From contig OZ244065.1 of assembly GCA_965215505.1 (NCBI GenBank), forward strand, positions 5,344,001 to 5,408,000: a stretch of 64,000 bases of DNA, given 5' to 3'. Below the pieces are notes generated by a model, which was given only the letters and a program-made list of their open reading frames with translations, was not told where the DNA came from and ran no database searches. Made by a program: the position numbers and the translations under genes. This DNA is from Capsulimonadaceae bacterium (GTDB taxonomy: Bacteria > Armatimonadota > Armatimonadia > Armatimonadales > Capsulimonadaceae). Below, piece after piece: positions 38,696 through 47,244 of this stretch. The first letter of the stretch is position 1; the number at the start of each line of letters is the position of its first letter.

Positions 38696-39130
38696 TTAGA
38701 GCGCGTCGTTCTGGAAGAACTCGATGACCTCGCCGTCCGGCCCTTTGACGAAGGCTAGGCGCACCGGCACCGGGTATTCGCCTGCGATGGTTACGTCCTT
38801 CGGCTCGATCTGCGAGATTGCCCCCGCCGCCATGGCGCGGGCATAAGCACCGTCAACGTCCGCTGTCCGCAGGGCGAAATGCAGCAGCGCACCCTCGGGG
38901 GCTTCTTCGCCCGCCGCCCGCTTGCCCCCGGCGAAGACCTCCAAATAGTTGCCGTCGCCGGTGTCCAGCATCGCCGCCCGGCTGTCGCCTTCGCCCCAGC
39001 CGAAGGTGCGGACGAAGCCCAGGCCCTCCTGATAGAAGCGCAGGGTCGCCTCGAAATCGGACGCCCGCAGGGCGATGTGGTGGAAGCCGGGCGCGTTCTT
39101 AGGCTTTCCGGGGATATGATTATCTGACAT
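38696..39130 (-). CDS. VOC/glyoxalase family protein
   Basis: FHHIALR, LEVF, HFAL, GPDGEVIEF. Confidence 0.88.
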   Translation of the reverse strand: MSDNHIPGKPKNAPGFHHIALRASDFEATLRFYQEGLGFVRTFGWGEGDSRAAMLDTGDGNYLEVFAGGKRAAGEEAPEGALLHFALRTADVDGAYARAMAAGAISQIEPKDVTIAGEYPVPVRLAFVKGPDGEVIEFFQNDAL

Positions 39131-39200
39131 GTCTAGTCTCCTCCAGTCGTGGTTTGGCCGATTGTACCCGAGGCAGCGCTGTTCCTGTCTTCTCCCACCG

Positions 39201-39941
39201 GTGCGCGGCTCCTTGCGATACAAAGCCACTCGTGTTAACTCCAGCGCTTTTACGCTCCTCGAACTCCTCGTCATCCTAGGCGTCATCGCCGCCCTTGCCG
39301 CAGTCCTGCTGCCGGTCTTCTTTGCTTCGCGGGAGCGGGCGCGGCGGACGTCTTGCCTCTCGAACCTCCGTCAACTCGATACCGCGCTGTTCATGTACAC
39401 CCAGGATAATGACGGGTTCTTTCCAGTGGCCCCGGCGGATGGGGACGGGGACGGCCCCAACTGGATGGAGGCGGTCCATCCGCTTGTCAGCAGCCACGAC
39501 ATTTTCCGCTGCACTGACTGTCCTATTCCTGACCCCGTCGGCGGGCCGGATCTGACCGATGCTGGGTACGCCCTGAACTACGAGCTTTATGATGCCCGCC
39601 GATCCCCGGATGCTGGGCCGGGCACTCCGGCCTCCGACTTGATGGTATCCTTTCCAGCGGCGACGGTTTCCCTGTGTGAAGTCGGCTATCGCACGGGGCC
39701 GAGGAAAGACGACACGAGTTACAGCACGGCGACTAACGCGCCGGATACTGCCGACGACCTAAACTCCGGTGTGACCACTTTCGGCCCGCCAGGGGCGTTG
39801 CGTCATAATGGTGGAAGCAACTACGGCTTTGTGGATGGGCACGTCCGGTGGTATCGTCCCGACCAGGTAGCTGCTGCTAAAGTAACCATGAATGGGGTAC
39901 TCGTGGGAAACAACGGCTCCGCGCCGACGTTCGCCCGGTGA
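39201..39941 (+). CDS. DUF1559-type prepilin-cleavage / H-X9-DG protein (start uncertain)
   Basis: AFTLLELLV, SCLSNLRQ, HNGGSNYGFVDGH. Confidence 0.85.
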   Translation: MRGSLRYKATRVNSSAFTLLELLVILGVIAALAAVLLPVFFASRERARRTSCLSNLRQLDTALFMYTQDNDGFFPVAPADGDGDGPNWMEAVHPLVSSHDIFRCTDCPIPDPVGGPDLTDAGYALNYELYDARRSPDAGPGTPASDLMVSFPAATVSLCEVGYRTGPRKDDTSYSTATNAPDTADDLNSGVTTFGPPGALRHNGGSNYGFVDGHVRWYRPDQVAAAKVTMNGVLVGNNGSAPTFAR

Positions 39942-39969
39942 TGGAGCGTCCGCGCGACGGAAACTGCTC

Positions 39970-39999
39970 TTGACATCCCCCGCCGCCCGCGTGTATAAT
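39970..39999 (+). promoter_or_regulatory. sigma70 promoter of the T-box leader
   Basis: TTGACA-18-TATAAT. Confidence 0.75.
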
Positions 40000-40037
40000 C
40001 AAGCCGAAGTATTCCAACAATCTTATTGAGACACAAC

Positions 40038-40376
40038 GGCGATGACGGAGACGAGTACGCCGCGAACACTCTAGCAGAGCGATCTGCGCCAGAGAGCCGG
40101 GGGAGCTGAGAACCGGCAGGGGAAGCGCGGCGGAAAATGACTCCCGAGCCGGGTGGGGGAAAGGCGCGCTGGAAGGGCGAACATAAGGTTCGCCCCTACT
40201 GAGTGCCGAGTAGTTCGCTCCGGGGGGCTCCCGTGACAGGGCCAGGGTCGAAAGGGCGCGCTCATCCGCGCGCCACTTGCACCCGCCAAGGCGGACGCCG
40301 TGAGGCGTCCGTGAAACAAGGTGGTACCACGGGGGCATGAGCCTTTCGTCCTTGTGTGGGGGCGGACGGCTTTTTT
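40038..40376 (+). ncRNA. Transcriptional T-box riboswitch with AUG (Met) specifier
   Basis: Stem I with GA motif, AGTA, AGAGA (40091), GCTGAGA loop, specifier loop GAAA-ATG-A (ATG at 40137-40139); stem II, F-box CCGTGA, stem III; T-box AAGGTGGTACCACG (40318-40331); terminator with T6. Confidence 0.9.
40174..40199 (-). repeat. GTAG-type REP palindrome inside T-box stem II
   Basis: Minus strand reads GTAGGGGCGAACCTTATGTTCGCCCT; 25/26 identical to 61316-61341. Confidence 0.8.
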
Positions 40377-40408
40377 AGTGCCTTTTTGAATATCCGTGGG
40401 AGGGAACC

Positions 40409-41686
40409 ATGCCGAAAGTGTTAGGGCTGCGCTGCCGCGAGTGCGGCGAGCAGTACGACAAAGCGCCGATTCACGTCTGCGAGCTGTGCTTCGGGCCGCT
40501 CGAAGTGCAGTACGACTACGACTTCGGGCCGAAGATCACGCGCGAGCTGATTCAGAGCGGCCCGCTCTCCATGTGGCGCTACGCCGACCTGCTGCCGCTC
40601 GACGGCGAGCCGTGCGTCGGCAAGCAGGTCGGGTTCACGCCGCTCGTCCGGGCCGAGAACCTGGGCCGCGCCCTGGGGCTGAAAGAGGTATACGTCAAGA
40701 ACGACGCCGTCAGCCACCCGACGCTGTCGTTCAAAGACCGCGTGGTCGCCGTCGCCCTGTCCAAAGCCCGCGAGTTCGGCTTTCAGACCGTCGGCTGCGC
40801 CTCCACCGGCAACCTTGCCAACTCCGTCGCCGCCCACGCCGCCGAGGGCGGGTTTGAGGCCTACATCTTCATCCCGCACGACCTGGAGCAAGGCAAGGTC
40901 GTCGGGACCCTGATCTACGGCGCGAACGTCCTGTCCGTGCAGGGCAACTACGACGAAGTGAACCGCCTGTGTTCCGAAGTCGCCGGCAAGTACGGCTGGG
41001 GCCTCGCCAACGTCAACCTGCGCCCCTTCTACGGGGACGGCTCCAAAACATTCGGCTATGAGATCGCCGAGCAATTAGGCTGGAAGGCCCCGCAGCACAT
41101 CGTCTGCCCTTCGGCGGGCGGGTCGCTCGTGACCAAGATTTACAAGGCCCTGAACGAGTTCGCCAAGCTCGGCCTGATTGACGGCGTGCCCACCAAGATG
41201 TATGTCGCCCAGGCGACCGGCTGCAACCCGATCGCGACGATGGTGAAAGAACGGTCCGAGATCATGAAGCCGGTCCGGCCCAACACCATCGCCAAGAGCA
41301 TCGCCATCGGCAACCCCGCCGACGGCTACTATGCCGCCGAGGCCTGCCGCAAGTCGGGCGGCTGGGCGGAAGATGTGAGCGATGAAGAGGTCGTGGAGGG
41401 CATCAAGCTCCTGGCCGAGACCGAGGGTATCTTCACCGAAACGGCGGGTGGCGTGACCGTCGCGACCACGCGCAAGCTGATCCGGCAGGGCGTCATCCCC
41501 AGGGACGAGAGCGTGGTCATCTGCATCACCGGCAACGGCCTGAAGACGATGGACGCCGTGCTGGGCAAGATCGGCAAGACGATTCCCATCCAGCCCTCGC
41601 TGGCTTCTCTGGAAGAAGCACTGGCAAGCCGCGCCCATGCGCTTCCTACGAAAACCATTCAGACGTCGGAACTGGTGACTGCATAA
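40409..41686 (+). CDS. Threonine-synthase-like PLP enzyme, probably a sulfur-carrier-dependent homocysteine synthase (MetM-like)
   Basis: CREC...CELC, PTLSFKDR, ASTGNLA, TGNGLK; Met T-box upstream and MoaD-like gene downstream. Confidence 0.8.
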   Translation: MPKVLGLRCRECGEQYDKAPIHVCELCFGPLEVQYDYDFGPKITRELIQSGPLSMWRYADLLPLDGEPCVGKQVGFTPLVRAENLGRALGLKEVYVKNDAVSHPTLSFKDRVVAVALSKAREFGFQTVGCASTGNLANSVAAHAAEGGFEAYIFIPHDLEQGKVVGTLIYGANVLSVQGNYDEVNRLCSEVAGKYGWGLANVNLRPFYGDGSKTFGYEIAEQLGWKAPQHIVCPSAGGSLVTKIYKALNEFAKLGLIDGVPTKMYVAQATGCNPIATMVKERSEIMKPVRPNTIAKSIAIGNPADGYYAAEACRKSGGWAEDVSDEEVVEGIKLLAETEGIFTETAGGVTVATTRKLIRQGVIPRDESVVICITGNGLKTMDAVLGKIGKTIPIQPSLASLEEALASRAHALPTKTIQTSELVTA

Positions 41687-41809
41687 GAACCCACCCCGCC
41701 GCTAGGGGCGGCGACCCTCCCCAAAGGGGAGGGCGAAGAGTTTGTGCCTCTGTCTCTTGCCCCTTCCGTTTCGGGAGGGGGAGCCGAACTTGTGAGGCGG
41801 GGTGGGTTC
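41687..41809. repeat. 123-bp palindromic REP/MITE-like element
   Basis: 14-bp perfect terminal inverted repeats GAACCCACCCCGCC/GGCGGGGTGGGTTC; internal hairpin CCCTCCCC-aaa-GGGGAGGG. Confidence 0.75.
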
Positions 41810-41835
41810 CGAAGACCCGCTAGAAACGACCAACC

Positions 41836-42606
41836 ATGAGAGCCTATCGCGAAAACCTTGCGCCCGACGAGCAGGCGCAGTTCGACCGGATGCGCGCCGA
41901 GGACGCCGAAGCGCCCCGTCAGTTCGTCAATTTTGCCTTCTACAAATTGGACCCGCTGTTCCGGCGCGAGCTGTCCGAGGCCGAGCGGGCCGACGCCGCC
42001 TGCGAGCTGGCTGAGGTCATCGAGGGCGCGCAGTCGAAGTTCCTGCTTTACCCCTACAGTACGCTCGGCATCCGGCCCGAGTGCGACTTCATGCTGTGGC
42101 GCATCTCGTACCGGATCGAGGACTTCGAGGAGATGACGACGGCCCTGCTGCGGACGCGCATGGGCCAGTACCTGTCCACGCCCTATTCGTACCTGGCGAT
42201 GACCAAGACCTCGATCTATGTGGACGAGCACGACTTCGAGGACCGCGAGGCGGGCCGCAAGCAGATCGTCATCGGCGGCGGCAAGTACCTGTTCGTCTAC
42301 CCGTTCATCAAGACCCGCGCCTGGTATCGGCTGACCGCCGACGAGCGGCGGCGGGCCATGCGCGAGCACATCACGGTCGGCCACGAGTACCCCAGCATCA
42401 AGCTGAACACGACCTACTCCTTCGGCCTGGACGACCAGGAGTTCGTCGTCGCCTTTGAAAGCGACTACCCGCAGGACTTCCTGGACCTCGTCCACAAGCT
42501 GCGCGAGAGCGAGGCCAGCGCCTACACCGAGCGGGACGTTCCCGTCTTCACCTGCTTGCAGCAGGACATGCAGACCATTCTGAAGCACGTCGGCGGCGTC
42601 AAATGA
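41836..42606 (+). CDS. Chlorite dismutase / coproheme decarboxylase (HemQ/ChdC) family heme protein
   Basis: FVYPFIKTRAWY, MREH, SFGLDDQEFVVAFE. Confidence 0.85.
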   Translation: MRAYRENLAPDEQAQFDRMRAEDAEAPRQFVNFAFYKLDPLFRRELSEAERADAACELAEVIEGAQSKFLLYPYSTLGIRPECDFMLWRISYRIEDFEEMTTALLRTRMGQYLSTPYSYLAMTKTSIYVDEHDFEDREAGRKQIVIGGGKYLFVYPFIKTRAWYRLTADERRRAMREHITVGHEYPSIKLNTTYSFGLDDQEFVVAFESDYPQDFLDLVHKLRESEASAYTERDVPVFTCLQQDMQTILKHVGGVK

Positions 42607-42631
42607 CCGACCGGCAGGAAGAGGAGACACA

Positions 42632-42910
42632 ATGGCAGTCAGCGTACTGATCCCGACGCCGTCCCGCAAATTCACGGCCGGCGAGGACACCGTCAGCGTC
42701 CAGGCGGCCACCGTCCGCGAGATGGTGGACGCGCTCGACTCGGCGCACCCCGGCCTGGGCAAGAGCCTCCGCAAACCCGACGGGTCCCTGAACCTGTTCA
42801 TCAACATCTACGTCAACGACGAGGACATCCGCTTCCTCCAGGGGCCGGACACGTCCCTGAAAGACGGCGACCAGGTCTCCATCGTGCCGGCCATCGCCGG
42901 GGGAAACTAA
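42632..42910 (+). CDS. MoaD/ThiS/CysO-family sulfur carrier ending GG-N
   Basis: INIYVNDEDIRFL, GDQVSIVPAIAGGN. Confidence 0.9.
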   Translation: MAVSVLIPTPSRKFTAGEDTVSVQAATVREMVDALDSAHPGLGKSLRKPDGSLNLFINIYVNDEDIRFLQGPDTSLKDGDQVSIVPAIAGGN

Positions 42911-42916
42911 ACACTT

Positions 42917-43156
42917 ATGGCCGTCGAACGCTTCAACCTGACCTTCAACAAGCTGATGCAGAGCCAGCCCATCGTCTACAACCTGGGCAAGAAGTACCGG
43001 CTGGTGACCGTGATCGAGAAGGCCAACGTCTCCGAGGAGGCCGGCTGGATGCAGGTCGCCTTCAACGGCGACGGCGACGAGATCCAGCGCGCCATTGCCG
43101 ACCTGAACACGCTGGGCGTCACCGTCACCCCCACCGAGATCGCCACCCTGAGCTGA
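42917..43156 (+). CDS. Stand-alone NIL-domain protein
   Basis: QPIVYNLGKKY...IEKANV...GV.V pattern; 79 aa. Confidence 0.8.
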   Translation: MAVERFNLTFNKLMQSQPIVYNLGKKYRLVTVIEKANVSEEAGWMQVAFNGDGDEIQRAIADLNTLGVTVTPTEIATLS

Positions 43157-43186
43157 CCCCCACACCCGCACTGCATTTAAGACCAC

Positions 43187-43220
43187 GGTCCCGAGGCACC
43201 CGCCTCGGGGCTGTTCTTGT
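43187..43220 (+). terminator. Intrinsic terminator after the NIL gene
   Basis: CCCGAGGC-accc-GCCTCGGG followed by a T-rich tail. Confidence 0.6.
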
Positions 43221-43259
43221 CTGTGTGTCCCCCCCCCTTTCGTCTACGCCAGCAAATAT

Positions 43260-43313
43260 TTAACACGGTATTAATACCGTGTTAATAACGTCTTAATGCT
43301 GCCTCCCCATAAT
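43260..43313 (+). promoter_or_regulatory. Pho-box-like promoter 1 (four 11-bp-periodic direct repeats plus -10)
   Basis: TTAA at 43260, 43271, 43282 and 43293; CATAAT at 43308. Confidence 0.75.
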
Positions 43314-43387
43314 CATGCCTACAGGCGAATAGAAACGCTGGCCGGTACGGCTTGGCAATCACTACGTCGTCCTATCGGCAAAAACAT

Positions 43388-43441
43388 TTAACACAGGCTT
43401 AACGCAGCCTTAATACCGGCTTTATGTGGAGCCTCCATAAT
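43388..43441 (+). promoter_or_regulatory. Pho-box-like promoter 2
   Basis: TTAA at 43388, 43399 and 43410, TTTA at 43421; CATAAT at 43436. Confidence 0.75.
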
Positions 43442-43750
43442 CATTATGTCCAAACGCAGGCAGGGTTCAACAACGGGCAGCCGTCCTCAAGCGAGGACAC
43501 GCCGAACCATCCTGAACCCTGCACCTGCCCTACAATTTGACGTGTGCCGACGGCGGCGGCTTGTTCAGCGCCTTCGACCTACCCCACGCGGCCCAAAATC
43601 TTCTCTTTCTGCCTGCTGCCGCAGCACCGCCGCAGAAATCATTGCTGATACCCTTGATGAGCTAATGGACGGGGGCACTGTACCTCCAGTCACGCGCCGA
43701 TGCTGTACCGGCTGCAATCGCGCAGCCGTTCTGATCGTAGGAGGCTTGTC

Positions 43751-46221: not shown

Positions 46222-46362
46222 GCGAACCCGCACACGAACCCTCGCTTCTGACGGGGCAGGCGACTACAGACTATCGTAGCCGCCTGCTCCTATATGTGCG
46301 GTAGCCGACTGACAGTGCGCCTACCTAAAGCTGGAAACCTGTCAGCCAAAAGGAGACTTGCC

Positions 46363-47244
46363 ATGCCCCTGAACCATAGCCGACAAAAGCGCGGTTTTAC
46401 CCTGATCGAGCTGCTCGTCGTCATCGCTATCATCGCGATTCTCGCCGCCATCCTGTTCCCCGTCTTCCAAAAAGTCCGCGAGAACGCCCGCCGCACCCAG
46501 GGCCTGTCCAACGCGAAGCAGCTCGGCCTGGGTATCATCCAGTACGTTCAAGACACCGACGAGAAGCTGCCCCTGGCCGGACACACGGAGAGCGAAAGCA
46601 ACCCAAACTGCGAACTGGCGGAATGGCAGAACGCCATCTATCCATTCGTTAAAAGCGACGCCGTCTATAAGGACCCCGATGACACGGTGCCCGCAGGGGG
46701 TGCCAACCAGTCACAGACTGACATCGGGCAAGGACTCGGGAAGATCAGCGCTTCCAGCTTCATCATGGGCTACTATGAGACGAACGCCCCCAGCGTTGGC
46801 GGCATCCGCTCATCTCATGGCTTGAATGACTTCACCGCGCCGGCACAGTTCATCCTGTTGCGGGAGGGTGCGCGGGGCGTCTTCGGCGGCGCGTCGCGCG
46901 GGACCAATGTCCCTGACCACAATGGCAACCTGAGCACGAGCTGGCTGGCCACATATGCCGAATCAGTGCCGAACGACGCGGAGGTCCTGACCAATCCTTG
47001 CAACATCGGCGTTTACAGTGCGGCTGGGGTTCCGTTTCACAAGGATGGGGAGATCATGCTTTTCCTGGACGGCCATGTGAAGTTCTACCCGATGAACCCT
47101 CAAGGTCCCGTCGGCTACTTGAACGGCAACCTGCCCGCCTGCAAGTACACGCTGCCCAACGCAGACGATCCTTCATGCAGCCTGACTACGCCGCCCGCGG
47201 ATGGTTCTGTCAGCGTCTGGCAGGACGTAGACTGTGGACGGTAA
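46363..47244 (+). CDS. DUF1559-type prepilin-cleavage / H-X9-DG protein
   Basis: [48 protein letters not shown]. Confidence 0.9.

Follow-up and report, generated by a model that had tools for sequence, protein, structure and literature searches.

The MetM/MetO pathway of homocysteine synthesis, described by Hasebe et al. in 2024, relies on a small sulfur carrier protein, MetO, which is matured by Mec and loaded with sulfur by MoeZ, and on the enzyme MetM, which makes homocysteine from O-phosphohomoserine and the MetO thiocarboxylate, as summarised in GapMind 2026 (appendix 4). In Streptomyces albulus, metM is described as having an upstream S-adenosylmethionine (SAM) riboswitch (PMC12172450). 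Here we analyze an operon of similar composition at positions 39970-43214 of a 64,000-nucleotide window (the whole stretch of DNA that was analyzed) from a Capsulimonadaceae bacterium of the phylum Armatimonadota. The window covers positions 5,344,001-5,408,000 of the single 6.18-Mb contig of assembly GCA_965215505.1, which has a completeness rating of 96%. We consider it likely that in this operon a T-box leader specific for tRNA-Met controls MetM/MetO-type thiocarboxylate-dependent homocysteine synthesis by an enzyme misannotated as threonine synthase.

As far as the sources cited describe the S. albulus system, the operon resembles it in several respects: an enzyme homologous to ThrC is encoded beside a ThiS/MoaD-type carrier, a Mec-type protease and MoeZ are encoded elsewhere, the RNA leader is methionine-responsive, and there is a separate true thrC. 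The operon differs in that its leader is a T-box for tRNA-Met where S. albulus has a SAM riboswitch, O-phosphohomoserine would be supplied by HomK and not ThrB, and the operon includes a conserved gene for a NIL-domain protein and, in the Capsulimonadaceae, a gene resembling chdC. The CysM/CysO/Mec/MoeZ system of Mycobacterium tuberculosis has a related carrier, CysO, and follows the same logic, with a pyridoxal 5'-phosphate (PLP) enzyme acting on an O-phospho-amino acid and a protein thiocarboxylate, and our genome also has its own CysM-like/JAB/MoeZ cluster. Unlike CysM, the enzyme in the window is of the ThrC type and its expected product is homocysteine, and the carrier of the genome's cysteine cluster is fused to its E1. 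Wolinella succinogenes reportedly uses HcyS, HcyD, HcyF and MetY, with sulfur delivered as a carrier thiocarboxylate, an extra C-terminal carrier residue removed by a JAB-type protease, and MetY acting with O-acetylhomoserine. That pathway shares with our operon the thiocarboxylate chemistry and the extra carrier residue, but no MetY- or MetX-type gene was found here.

Methionine T-boxes are known from Firmicutes, where the leader of the Staphylococcus aureus metICFE-mdh operon is described as initiator-tRNA-specific with an AUG specifier (PMC3771891, PMC7913692). The leader in the window is like these, as far as those sources go, in that it appears to act by terminating transcription, has an AUG specifier and precedes genes for methionine biosynthesis. 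In contrast to the S. aureus leader, it occurs in Armatimonadota, is attached to another pathway, and has a bulge that fits the A73 of elongator tRNA-Met and not the initiator, which has C73 here.

The features of the operon, all on the + strand, are as follows.

39970-39999 (+): sigma-70-type promoter, TTGACA-18 nt-TATAAT, 12/12 consensus matches
40033-40356 (+): T-box leader, full-length match to RF00230
40034-40158 (+): Stem I with the specifier loop, RNAalifold covariation in 61 leaders
40137-40139 (+): specifier codon AUG (Met), followed by A40140, the purine usual at that place, from the Infernal alignment
40320-40328 (+): T-box core GGUGGUACC, from the sequence and the Infernal alignment, with the UGGU bulge at 40322-40325
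40341-40376 (+): intrinsic terminator, hairpin and T-run, from the scan (40345-40376) and RNAfold
40409-41686 (+): ThrC-like PLP enzyme, 425 aa; PALP 223 bits, TIGR00260 290 bits
41836-42606 (+): chlorite-dismutase (Cld)-family protein; PF06778 194 bits
42632-42910 (+): ThiS/MoaD-like carrier, 92 aa, ending ...AIAGGN; PF02597 61 bits
42917-43156 (+): stand-alone NIL-domain protein, 79 aa; PF09383 39.5 bits, E 5e-10
43185-43214 (+): terminator-like hairpin closing the operon, 13-bp stem with 9 G-C pairs and a weak T tract, TCTTGTCTGT

All of the operon elements named in the original prediction, which had been made by a model from the sequence alone, were found in place, and profile matches confirmed the four downstream genes that it had proposed: a ThrC-like PLP enzyme, a Cld-family protein, a carrier ending in GG-N and a NIL domain. 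A scan of 39900-43750 found 2 promoter-like sites where 0.5 were expected from shuffled sequence, and 4 terminator-like sites where 3.3 were expected, which means that by themselves the terminator matches do not exceed chance. The same simple scans gave no further promoter or terminator match on the + strand between 39970 and 43214. Contigs that are 90-99% like the operon are present in metatranscriptome data (three RNA runs of one study and one probable DNA run), which is not proof of transcription; they cover parts of the leader and of all four genes and span the junction between the carrier and NIL genes (42793-43146).

The T-box match at 40033-40356 (+) spans model positions 1-219 of RF00230 with 55.1 bits and an E-value of 2.1e-11 in a 481-nt search (39940-40420), and the same match was returned at E 6.4e-11 in a search of the whole genome, alongside two other T-boxes. 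The default Rfam scan of the window at gathering thresholds gave 0 matches, and the T-box surfaced only in the E-value search. All three T-boxes of this genome fall below the Rfam gathering score, so default scans would miss every one of them. The Infernal alignment has three long G+C-rich insertions relative to the model and places the specifier columns on A40137-U40138-G40139, in the context GGAAA-AUG-A. This bears out the original claim of a complete T-box with a GAAA-AUG-A specifier. The two other T-boxes served as a control on the register of the specifier, which was correct in 2/2 cases: the specifier columns read CUC before the gene for the large subunit of acetolactate synthase, and GUC before valS. 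These Leu (CUC) and Val (GUC) T-boxes lie at L007:1501-1793 (-) and L009:1501-1735 (+) and score 77.7 and 49.1 bits.

For leader conservation we used 80 fetched loci encoding relatives of the ThrC-like enzyme, which with the window makes 81. The T-box core GGUGG(U/A)A(C/U)C was found upstream in 63/81; of the 18 loci without it, 14 belong to other phyla, 2 lack any upstream sequence and 2 are Armatimonadota loci. The pattern GAA(N)AUG...GAGC is present in 61 of the 63 core-bearing leaders, and the two that lack it have upstream sequence of just 201 and 330 nt. All 61 agree fully in the GAA and ATG columns. RNAalifold, run on the 61 Stem I regions, returned 19 pairs, and compensatory double changes occur in 15 of these. 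Other specifier frames were tried and rejected. A fixed GAA-N-NNN frame would read AUG in 29 leaders, UGG in 24, UGA in 7 and UGU in 1, another shifted frame would read CAU/AAU, and the triplet that follows AUG, which is ACU in the window, takes six forms (GCU 20, GCC 20, ACU 16, GUC 3, AUC 1, UUC 1). Because AUG is invariant and the competing frames are inconsistent, we read the specifier as AUG and not ACU, in agreement with the prediction of Met over Thr. The conservation of this codon supports the assignment of the T-box as Met-specific.

According to the Infernal alignment, UUCGUCCUU at 40345-40353 serves as the 3' strand of the antiterminator; this stretch is also the 5' strand of the terminator, so the antiterminator and terminator are mutually exclusive. 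RNAfold gives the terminator hairpin -15.5 kcal/mol, and it is followed by T6. By a crude test, a hairpin of -10 kcal/mol or lower precedes at least 4 T in 45/61 leaders. Discriminator bases were taken from ARAGORN predictions and our own reading of the acceptor stems. In this genome, both the elongator tRNA-Met and a tRNA-Ile2-like tRNA with a CAU anticodon have A73, an initiator-like tRNA has C73, and all three tRNA-Thr have U73. Given the UGGU bulge, the A73 of elongator tRNA-Met and the U73 of tRNA-Thr, in this genome the bulge suits tRNA-Met and not tRNA-Thr, as had been predicted from the bulge sequence. We also noted an odd CAU-anticodon tRNA with a U1-A72 acceptor end and U73 at G000:C1:2219763-2219837 (-). 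The initiator-like tRNA at G000:C1:1145180-1145253 (+) has C1xU72 along with its C73, and A73 is usual for bacterial initiator tRNAs.

The ThrC-like enzyme has an N-terminal zinc ribbon of four cysteines (C9, C12, C24, C27) and an SFKDR motif with the Schiff-base lysine K109, all invariant in 45 orthologs. It is 34-35% identical to the two other ThrC-like paralogs of its own genome, compared to 64-67% identity with carrier-linked homologs in Omnitrophota, Methylomirabilota, Planctomycetota, Nitrospirota and others, which assigns it to a separate orthologous group that is linked to the carrier. In 74 of the 80 loci the next gene after the ThrC-like one encodes a carrier, and in each of the 6 exceptions the sequence extends less than 1.8 kb downstream. 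The nearest solved relatives of the carrier are 4N6E_B (E 6.5e-22) and M. tuberculosis CysO, 3DWG_C (E 2.1e-18). Its G90 and G91 are invariant in 48 sequences. The carrier stops exactly at GG in 32/74 loci, while most of the others have one more residue, which is variable (V, C, R, F, N, K, S, I, A, L). Such variability would be expected if the residue is removed before use.

We then asked what else the genome encodes for this pathway. The original prediction had called for another thrC, and there is one, scoring 311 bits and thus better than the gene in the window, 2 kb from HomK, so the window's gene is not the sole thrC. HomK itself is over the cut-off of TIGR02535 with 499 bits. Neither the canonical ThrB model nor thrB_alt gave a match over cut-off in the genome; since ThrB was not found and HomK is present, we assign the O-phosphohomoserine step to HomK. 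MetH is present (1685 bits). Profile searches of the genome found no MetX and no MetA, and no convincing Cys/Met-gamma-PLP enzyme (PF01053; MetB/MetY type), where the best match was a partial one of 40.7 bits. The anticipated absence of metX and metY thus holds for these searches. DUF39/HcyBio was found in 0/7 genomes of the genus (genus counts refer to 5 or 7 genomes and include the window's own).

Also as anticipated, a MoeZ-type protein and a JAB protease are encoded elsewhere. The genome has exactly one Prok-JAB protease (98 bits) and one ThiF-family protein, and both lie in a cluster at 4.79 Mb together with a CysM/K-like PALP gene, a rhodanese-like open reading frame and an Rrf2-like open reading frame (the last two named by eye). 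The ThiF protein, the E1 of the system, is a 492-aa ThiS-ThiF-rhodanese fusion of the MoeZ type at L021:1093-2571 (-), equivalent to G000:C1:4789762-4791240, and the carrier of the window shares 45% identity with its ThiS part. Since a CysO-like carrier is here fused to its own E1, that carrier would need to be cut off the E1. Its neighbors, the sole Prok-JAB gene and the CysM/K-like PALP gene, are at L018:1447-1872 (-) and L005:967-1908 (-). The genome's third ThrC-like paralog has a zinc ribbon and matches NF006050 with 564 bits (cut-off 303); it is located at L003:1465-2661 (-), equivalent to G000:C1:6149517-6150713. This paralog adjoins a gene for a MarR-type regulator, and no carrier gene is nearby.

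A link to methionine also comes from relatives in other phyla. Among 16 scanned loci that have no T-box, five have a SAM-I riboswitch upstream on the same strand, with 78-85 bits against a gathering score of 44. In four of these the riboswitch is directly before the operon, and in one a CysK/M-like PALP gene lies between them. SAM-I riboswitches before orthologous operons of other phyla are strong independent evidence for the connection with methionine. A ThiF E1 gene is inside the operon in three examined loci (L169, L171 and L181). Locus L181, from a Nitrospirae metagenome-assembled genome (5902-7107 +), has the order ThrC-like enzyme, carrier, ThiF, a PALP protein fused to a TusA sulfurtransferase domain, and then NIL. 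To judge from its gene content, this arrangement looks like a combined cysteine/homocysteine thiocarboxylate module.

The combination of a Met T-box, a separate thrC, a MoeZ-type E1 and a JAB protease with the failure to find MetX, MetA or MetB/MetY-type enzymes makes a homocysteine synthase of the MetM/MetO type the best reading of the annotated 'threonine synthase', as the original prediction had proposed. Most likely, the cell has no other route to homocysteine than this operon. In the literature searched, with the original MetM/MetO paper and its supplements outside the search, we found no T-box control of such an operon and no description of NIL in a MetM/MetO-type pathway. The same literature yielded nothing relevant on T-boxes in Armatimonadetes.

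Based on the anatomy, conservation and covariation of the leader and on the gene inventory, we can sketch how tRNA binding, enzyme chemistry and carrier processing would proceed. The region 39970-43214 would be one transcription unit, switched on by uncharged tRNA-Met, that supplies homocysteine for methionine synthesis. Transcription would begin at the consensus promoter, the nascent leader would fold into Stem I, and the AUG specifier would pair with the CAU anticodon of elongator tRNA-Met. When this tRNA carries no amino acid, its free A73-C-C-A end would pair with the UGGU bulge and stabilize the antiterminator, sequestering 40345-40353 and blocking the terminator hairpin; when it is charged, the terminator would form and transcription would end at 40376. 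HomK, encoded elsewhere, would make O-phosphohomoserine. The ThrC-like enzyme would form a PLP-bound vinylglycine-type intermediate, as threonine synthase does, and would take sulfur from the C-terminal thiocarboxylate of the carrier in place of water. The resulting carrier-homocysteine adduct would rearrange or be hydrolyzed to homocysteine, which MetH would methylate. Before this, the one JAB/Mec-type protease of the genome would presumably remove the extra Asn from the C-terminus of the carrier, and the one MoeZ-type ThiF-rhodanese protein would adenylate and sulfurate the trimmed carrier; the genes for both proteins lie in the CysM cluster at 4.79 Mb.

Several observations weigh against this reading. 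The T-box score of 55.1 bits is below the Rfam gathering score of 93. The enzyme passes the TIGR00260 (thrC) cut-off at 290 bits, and its NCBIfam name is therefore 'threonine synthase'; with NF006050 it scores 280 bits, under the cut-off of 303. No role is assigned to the third ThrC-like paralog. Orthology to S. albulus MetM is something we infer, and a Microcystis ThrC that is encoded beside a MetO-like gene and is 51.6% identical to MetM is described as not fully MetM-like (PMC12172450). Finally, the bulge is UGGA in 28 of the 61 related leaders, mostly from Chthonomonadaceae, and in five genomes with UGGA the elongator tRNA-Met has A73 (3/3 found), the initiator has C73 (5/5) and tRNA-Thr(UGU) has C73 (2/2). 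With UGGA bulges beside an A73 tRNA-Met, the discriminator pairing does not covary across the phylum. One candidate explanation, that tRNA-Met of the UGGA-type genomes has U73, was ruled out by the A73 of the elongator and the C73 of the initiator. Leaders with UGGA include L131, L135, L152, L160 and L161, and the tRNAs were inspected in L189, L190, L192 and L196-L200.

The original prediction had given the homocysteine synthase two extra partners, NIL and Cld. The first of these is a conserved operon partner, with a NIL gene within 3.5 kb of the operon in 64/80 loci and fusions of NIL to the carrier; the second is not, with Cld in the operon in only 27/80 loci, all Capsulimonadaceae-like, and with homologs elsewhere that stand alone. 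The window's NIL gene starts 6 nt past the stop codon of the carrier gene, and in Capsulimonadaceae-type loci this start is between -4 and +6 nt from the carrier stop codon. In locus L182, NIL is the first gene behind a SAM riboswitch, followed by the enzyme and then the carrier. In locus L174, carrier and NIL form one 171-aa protein, ...IIPAIAGG-SSLKRR-NIL. With this fusion as the query, 2,698 proteins were found at E <= 1e-5, and all 120 of the clusters listed are 170-179 aa long with PF02597 and PF09383. A query for longer proteins using NIL alone gave 32 candidates, none at E <= 0.001, and the fusions emerged only with the L174 fusion as query. In Chthonomonadaceae, the NIL protein is often a tandem NIL-NIL of 172-179 aa (L131:5259-5780, L146:3118-3648, L149:5571-6098, L151:5120-5647 and others). 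The second domain of the tandem form ends in a conserved tail, ...QRSV(T/S)D..NL, which is absent from the single-domain form of Capsulimonadaceae.

The C2/NIL domain of MetN binds methionine for trans-inhibition of the MetNI importer. An AlphaFold2 model of the window's NIL protein (mean pLDDT, the predicted local distance difference test score, 87) is placed by Foldseek on the E. coli MetN C2 domain with a template-modeling (TM) score of 0.84-0.86 and a root-mean-square deviation of 0.8-0.9 A, and the top 11 matches to the model are MetN-type NIL domains. The two proteins belong to the same Pfam family, and their predicted folds are nearly identical. In contrast to MetNI, NIL here either stands alone as a 79-aa protein or extends the carrier at its C-terminus, and it comes without an ATP-binding cassette (ABC) ATPase. 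A second precedent is the DUF39 pathway of methanogens and Desulfovibrio, in which NIL-ferredoxin proteins are reported to be genetically required for homocysteine formation (PMC5764234). As that source describes it, the pair DUF39 (MA1821) and NIL-ferredoxin (MA1822) resembles our operon in tying NIL to homocysteine formation; it differs in that the genus studied here has no DUF39, in that NIL is alone or on a ThiS-type carrier instead of on a ferredoxin, and in the carbon substrate.

We suggest that NIL is a third component alongside the carrier, most likely a regulatory subunit that binds methionine or homocysteine as the C2 domain of MetN does and acts with the carrier branch, although of all our assignments this is the least certain. 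A different role is possible, if not the one we favor: NIL could be a component of the sulfur relay or a chaperone, or a removable cap that blocks the GG of the carrier until it is released by the JAB protease. In the fusions, a 6-residue linker and then NIL directly follow GG, so NIL would have to be cleaved off before the carrier could be adenylated. The genetic requirement for NIL fused to ferredoxin in the DUF39 pathway, as reported in the source above, also favors such a role, as does the position of NIL behind the ThiF E1 gene in three loci. On the other hand, the window's NIL sequence contains no cysteine, which argues against a persulfide relay, and its modeled fold is close to the methionine-binding domain of MetN, which fits the regulatory subunit better.

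Where the Cld gene occurs in the operon, in 27/80 loci that all have at least 82% ThrC identity to the window, it always separates the gene for the enzyme from that for the carrier and has their orientation. It is absent from the operon in the other 53, which include those of the sister order Chthonomonadales and of all other phyla sampled. We also looked from the Cld side, keeping 80 loci of 589 confirmed Cld relatives. Only 3 of these 80, from Armatimonadales, have other operon genes nearby, and 77 have no ThrC-like, carrier or NIL gene within 4 kb. Those 77 homologs are 49-59% identical and come from Nitrospirota, Acidobacteriota, Chloroflexota, Planctomycetota and others. No recurring heme or sulfur genes were found in the neighborhoods of the homologs from other phyla; the commonest neighbors, named by eye, were RecA-, CinA-, LigT- and EndoIII-like proteins. 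The genome has no Cld paralog. Some relatives of the operon have 0.8-1.3 kb extra between the ThrC-like and Cld genes or between the Cld and carrier genes (L105:4769-5675, L162:4781-5588, L117:5711-7036), so the junctions around the inserted Cld gene are variable.

The nearest solved relatives of the Cld protein are coproheme decarboxylases, namely 9MHQ (E 3e-25) and ChdC of Corynebacterium diphtheriae, 6XUB. The VYPFIK, REH and DEH stretches align with 9MHQ, and we take the YPxxK strand and the two His positions to be the sites of catalytic residues. The likeness to actinobacterial ChdC/HemQ has limits: the protein is below the equivalog cut-offs (HemQ_actino 124.5 vs 235 bits; PRK12276 77 vs 253), its gene is in a methionine operon, and the genus has neither ferrochelatase nor HemE, so coproheme would come from a siroheme (Ahb-type) route. 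Among the heme genes of the genus, ALAD is present in 5/5 genomes and a siroheme-decarboxylase-type domain (PF17805) in 4/5, while ferrochelatase (PF00762) was found in 0/7, HemE (PF01208) in 0/5 and HemF in 0/7, and HemN gave sub-threshold matches only. In this genome the PF17805 domain is found in a 387-aa fused AhbA-like/AhbB-like protein, with 47 and 67 bits (both under the cut-offs), which is encoded at L205:7019-8182 (-), equivalent to G000:C1:6042018-6043181. The AhbC and AhbD models TIGR04054 and TIGR04055 gave generic radical-SAM matches of about 40-55 bits; all 14 control genomes match as well, and none is over the cut-off, so these matches carry no information. In a recent review, the Ahb route is described as making coproheme, and AhbC and AhbD as needing SAM (PMC13564367). 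Given an Ahb-type siroheme decarboxylase and coproheme from the Ahb route, we read Cld as the terminal coproheme decarboxylase. Its homology and gene context indicate that it is probably a ChdC/HemQ-like coproheme decarboxylase, a lineage-specific insertion in the operon of Capsulimonadaceae that stands outside the sulfur chemistry, and that the genus probably makes heme through siroheme and coproheme, finished by this protein, without ferrochelatase or HemE. Its placement in an operon for methionine starvation may spare SAM, or it may be an accident.

It seems improbable to us that Cld is instead a functional part of the homocysteine pathway, for example as a heme-dependent enzyme that supplies or protects a sulfur species. 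Its constant position in all 27 Capsulimonadaceae-type loci that show it would speak for this, as would the scan that saw no internal promoter or terminator on the + strand, the score under the HemQ equivalog cut-off, and the missing ferrochelatase, HemE and HemF of the usual HemQ context. Against it stand the 53 operons that do without Cld, including those of Chthonomonadales, the unrelated housekeeping neighbors of the 77 stand-alone homologs, and the alignment of the YPxxK strand and His positions with coproheme decarboxylases. The fused AhbA/AhbB-like siroheme decarboxylase would also be a source of coproheme that does not require ferrochelatase, and the spacers around the Cld gene range from 23 nt to about 1.3 kb among relatives.

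Most improbable of all is that the product of the ThrC-like enzyme and carrier is a different sulfur compound (cysteine from O-phosphoserine, or a thio-metabolite), or that the enzyme is a second threonine synthase under indirect methionine control: the TIGR00260 match, the closeness of the carrier to CysO-type carriers of cysteine and thiosugar pathways, and a cyanobacterial homolog that in one study is described as acting as threonine deaminase or synthase and not as MetM (PMC12172450) would favor this, but the genome already has a dedicated CysM-like/JAB/carrier-MoeZ cluster and a better thrC beside homK, the cysteate synthase model gives 62 bits against a cut-off of 325, two unrelated methionine-sensing RNAs (the AUG T-box and the SAM-I riboswitch) precede orthologous operons, and MetH needs homocysteine, for which no other source was found in the genome.

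The operon is flanked by genes for DUF1559 proteins with the prepilin-type N-terminal methylation motif, at 39129-39941 (+) and 46294-47244 (+) of the window. Planctomycetota and Armatimonadota encode many proteins of this DUF1559/prepilin type.

The MetM/MetO pathway has been known only since 2024, and genome annotations still routinely call its enzyme threonine synthase. If our reading of the operon as a tRNA-Met-controlled homocysteine synthesis operon is right, a bacterium from a little-studied phylum, whose genome is complete, apparently depends on this pathway alone for homocysteine, and at least eight other named lineages have homologous operons. The T-box and the SAM-I riboswitch on orthologous operons provide independent genomic support for the function, and they can be used for correcting annotations. 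The conserved and often fused NIL points to a component of the pathway for which we found no description, and three independent systems (MetN, DUF39 with NIL-ferredoxin, and the operon type of the window) now link NIL to methionine or homocysteine. A more far-reaching proposal, which we offer as speculation and think unlikely as a whole, is that enzyme, carrier and NIL form a three-part machine in which NIL senses methionine or homocysteine and gates the carrier, and that the Capsulimonadaceae operon has recruited a SAM-independent coproheme decarboxylase. If so, fused NIL would cap the GG until removal by the JAB protease, while split NIL would bind the carrier or E1 and add post-translational feedback on top of the RNA switch. 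Under methionine or SAM starvation, the last step of heme synthesis from siroheme would then be independent of a radical-SAM enzyme.

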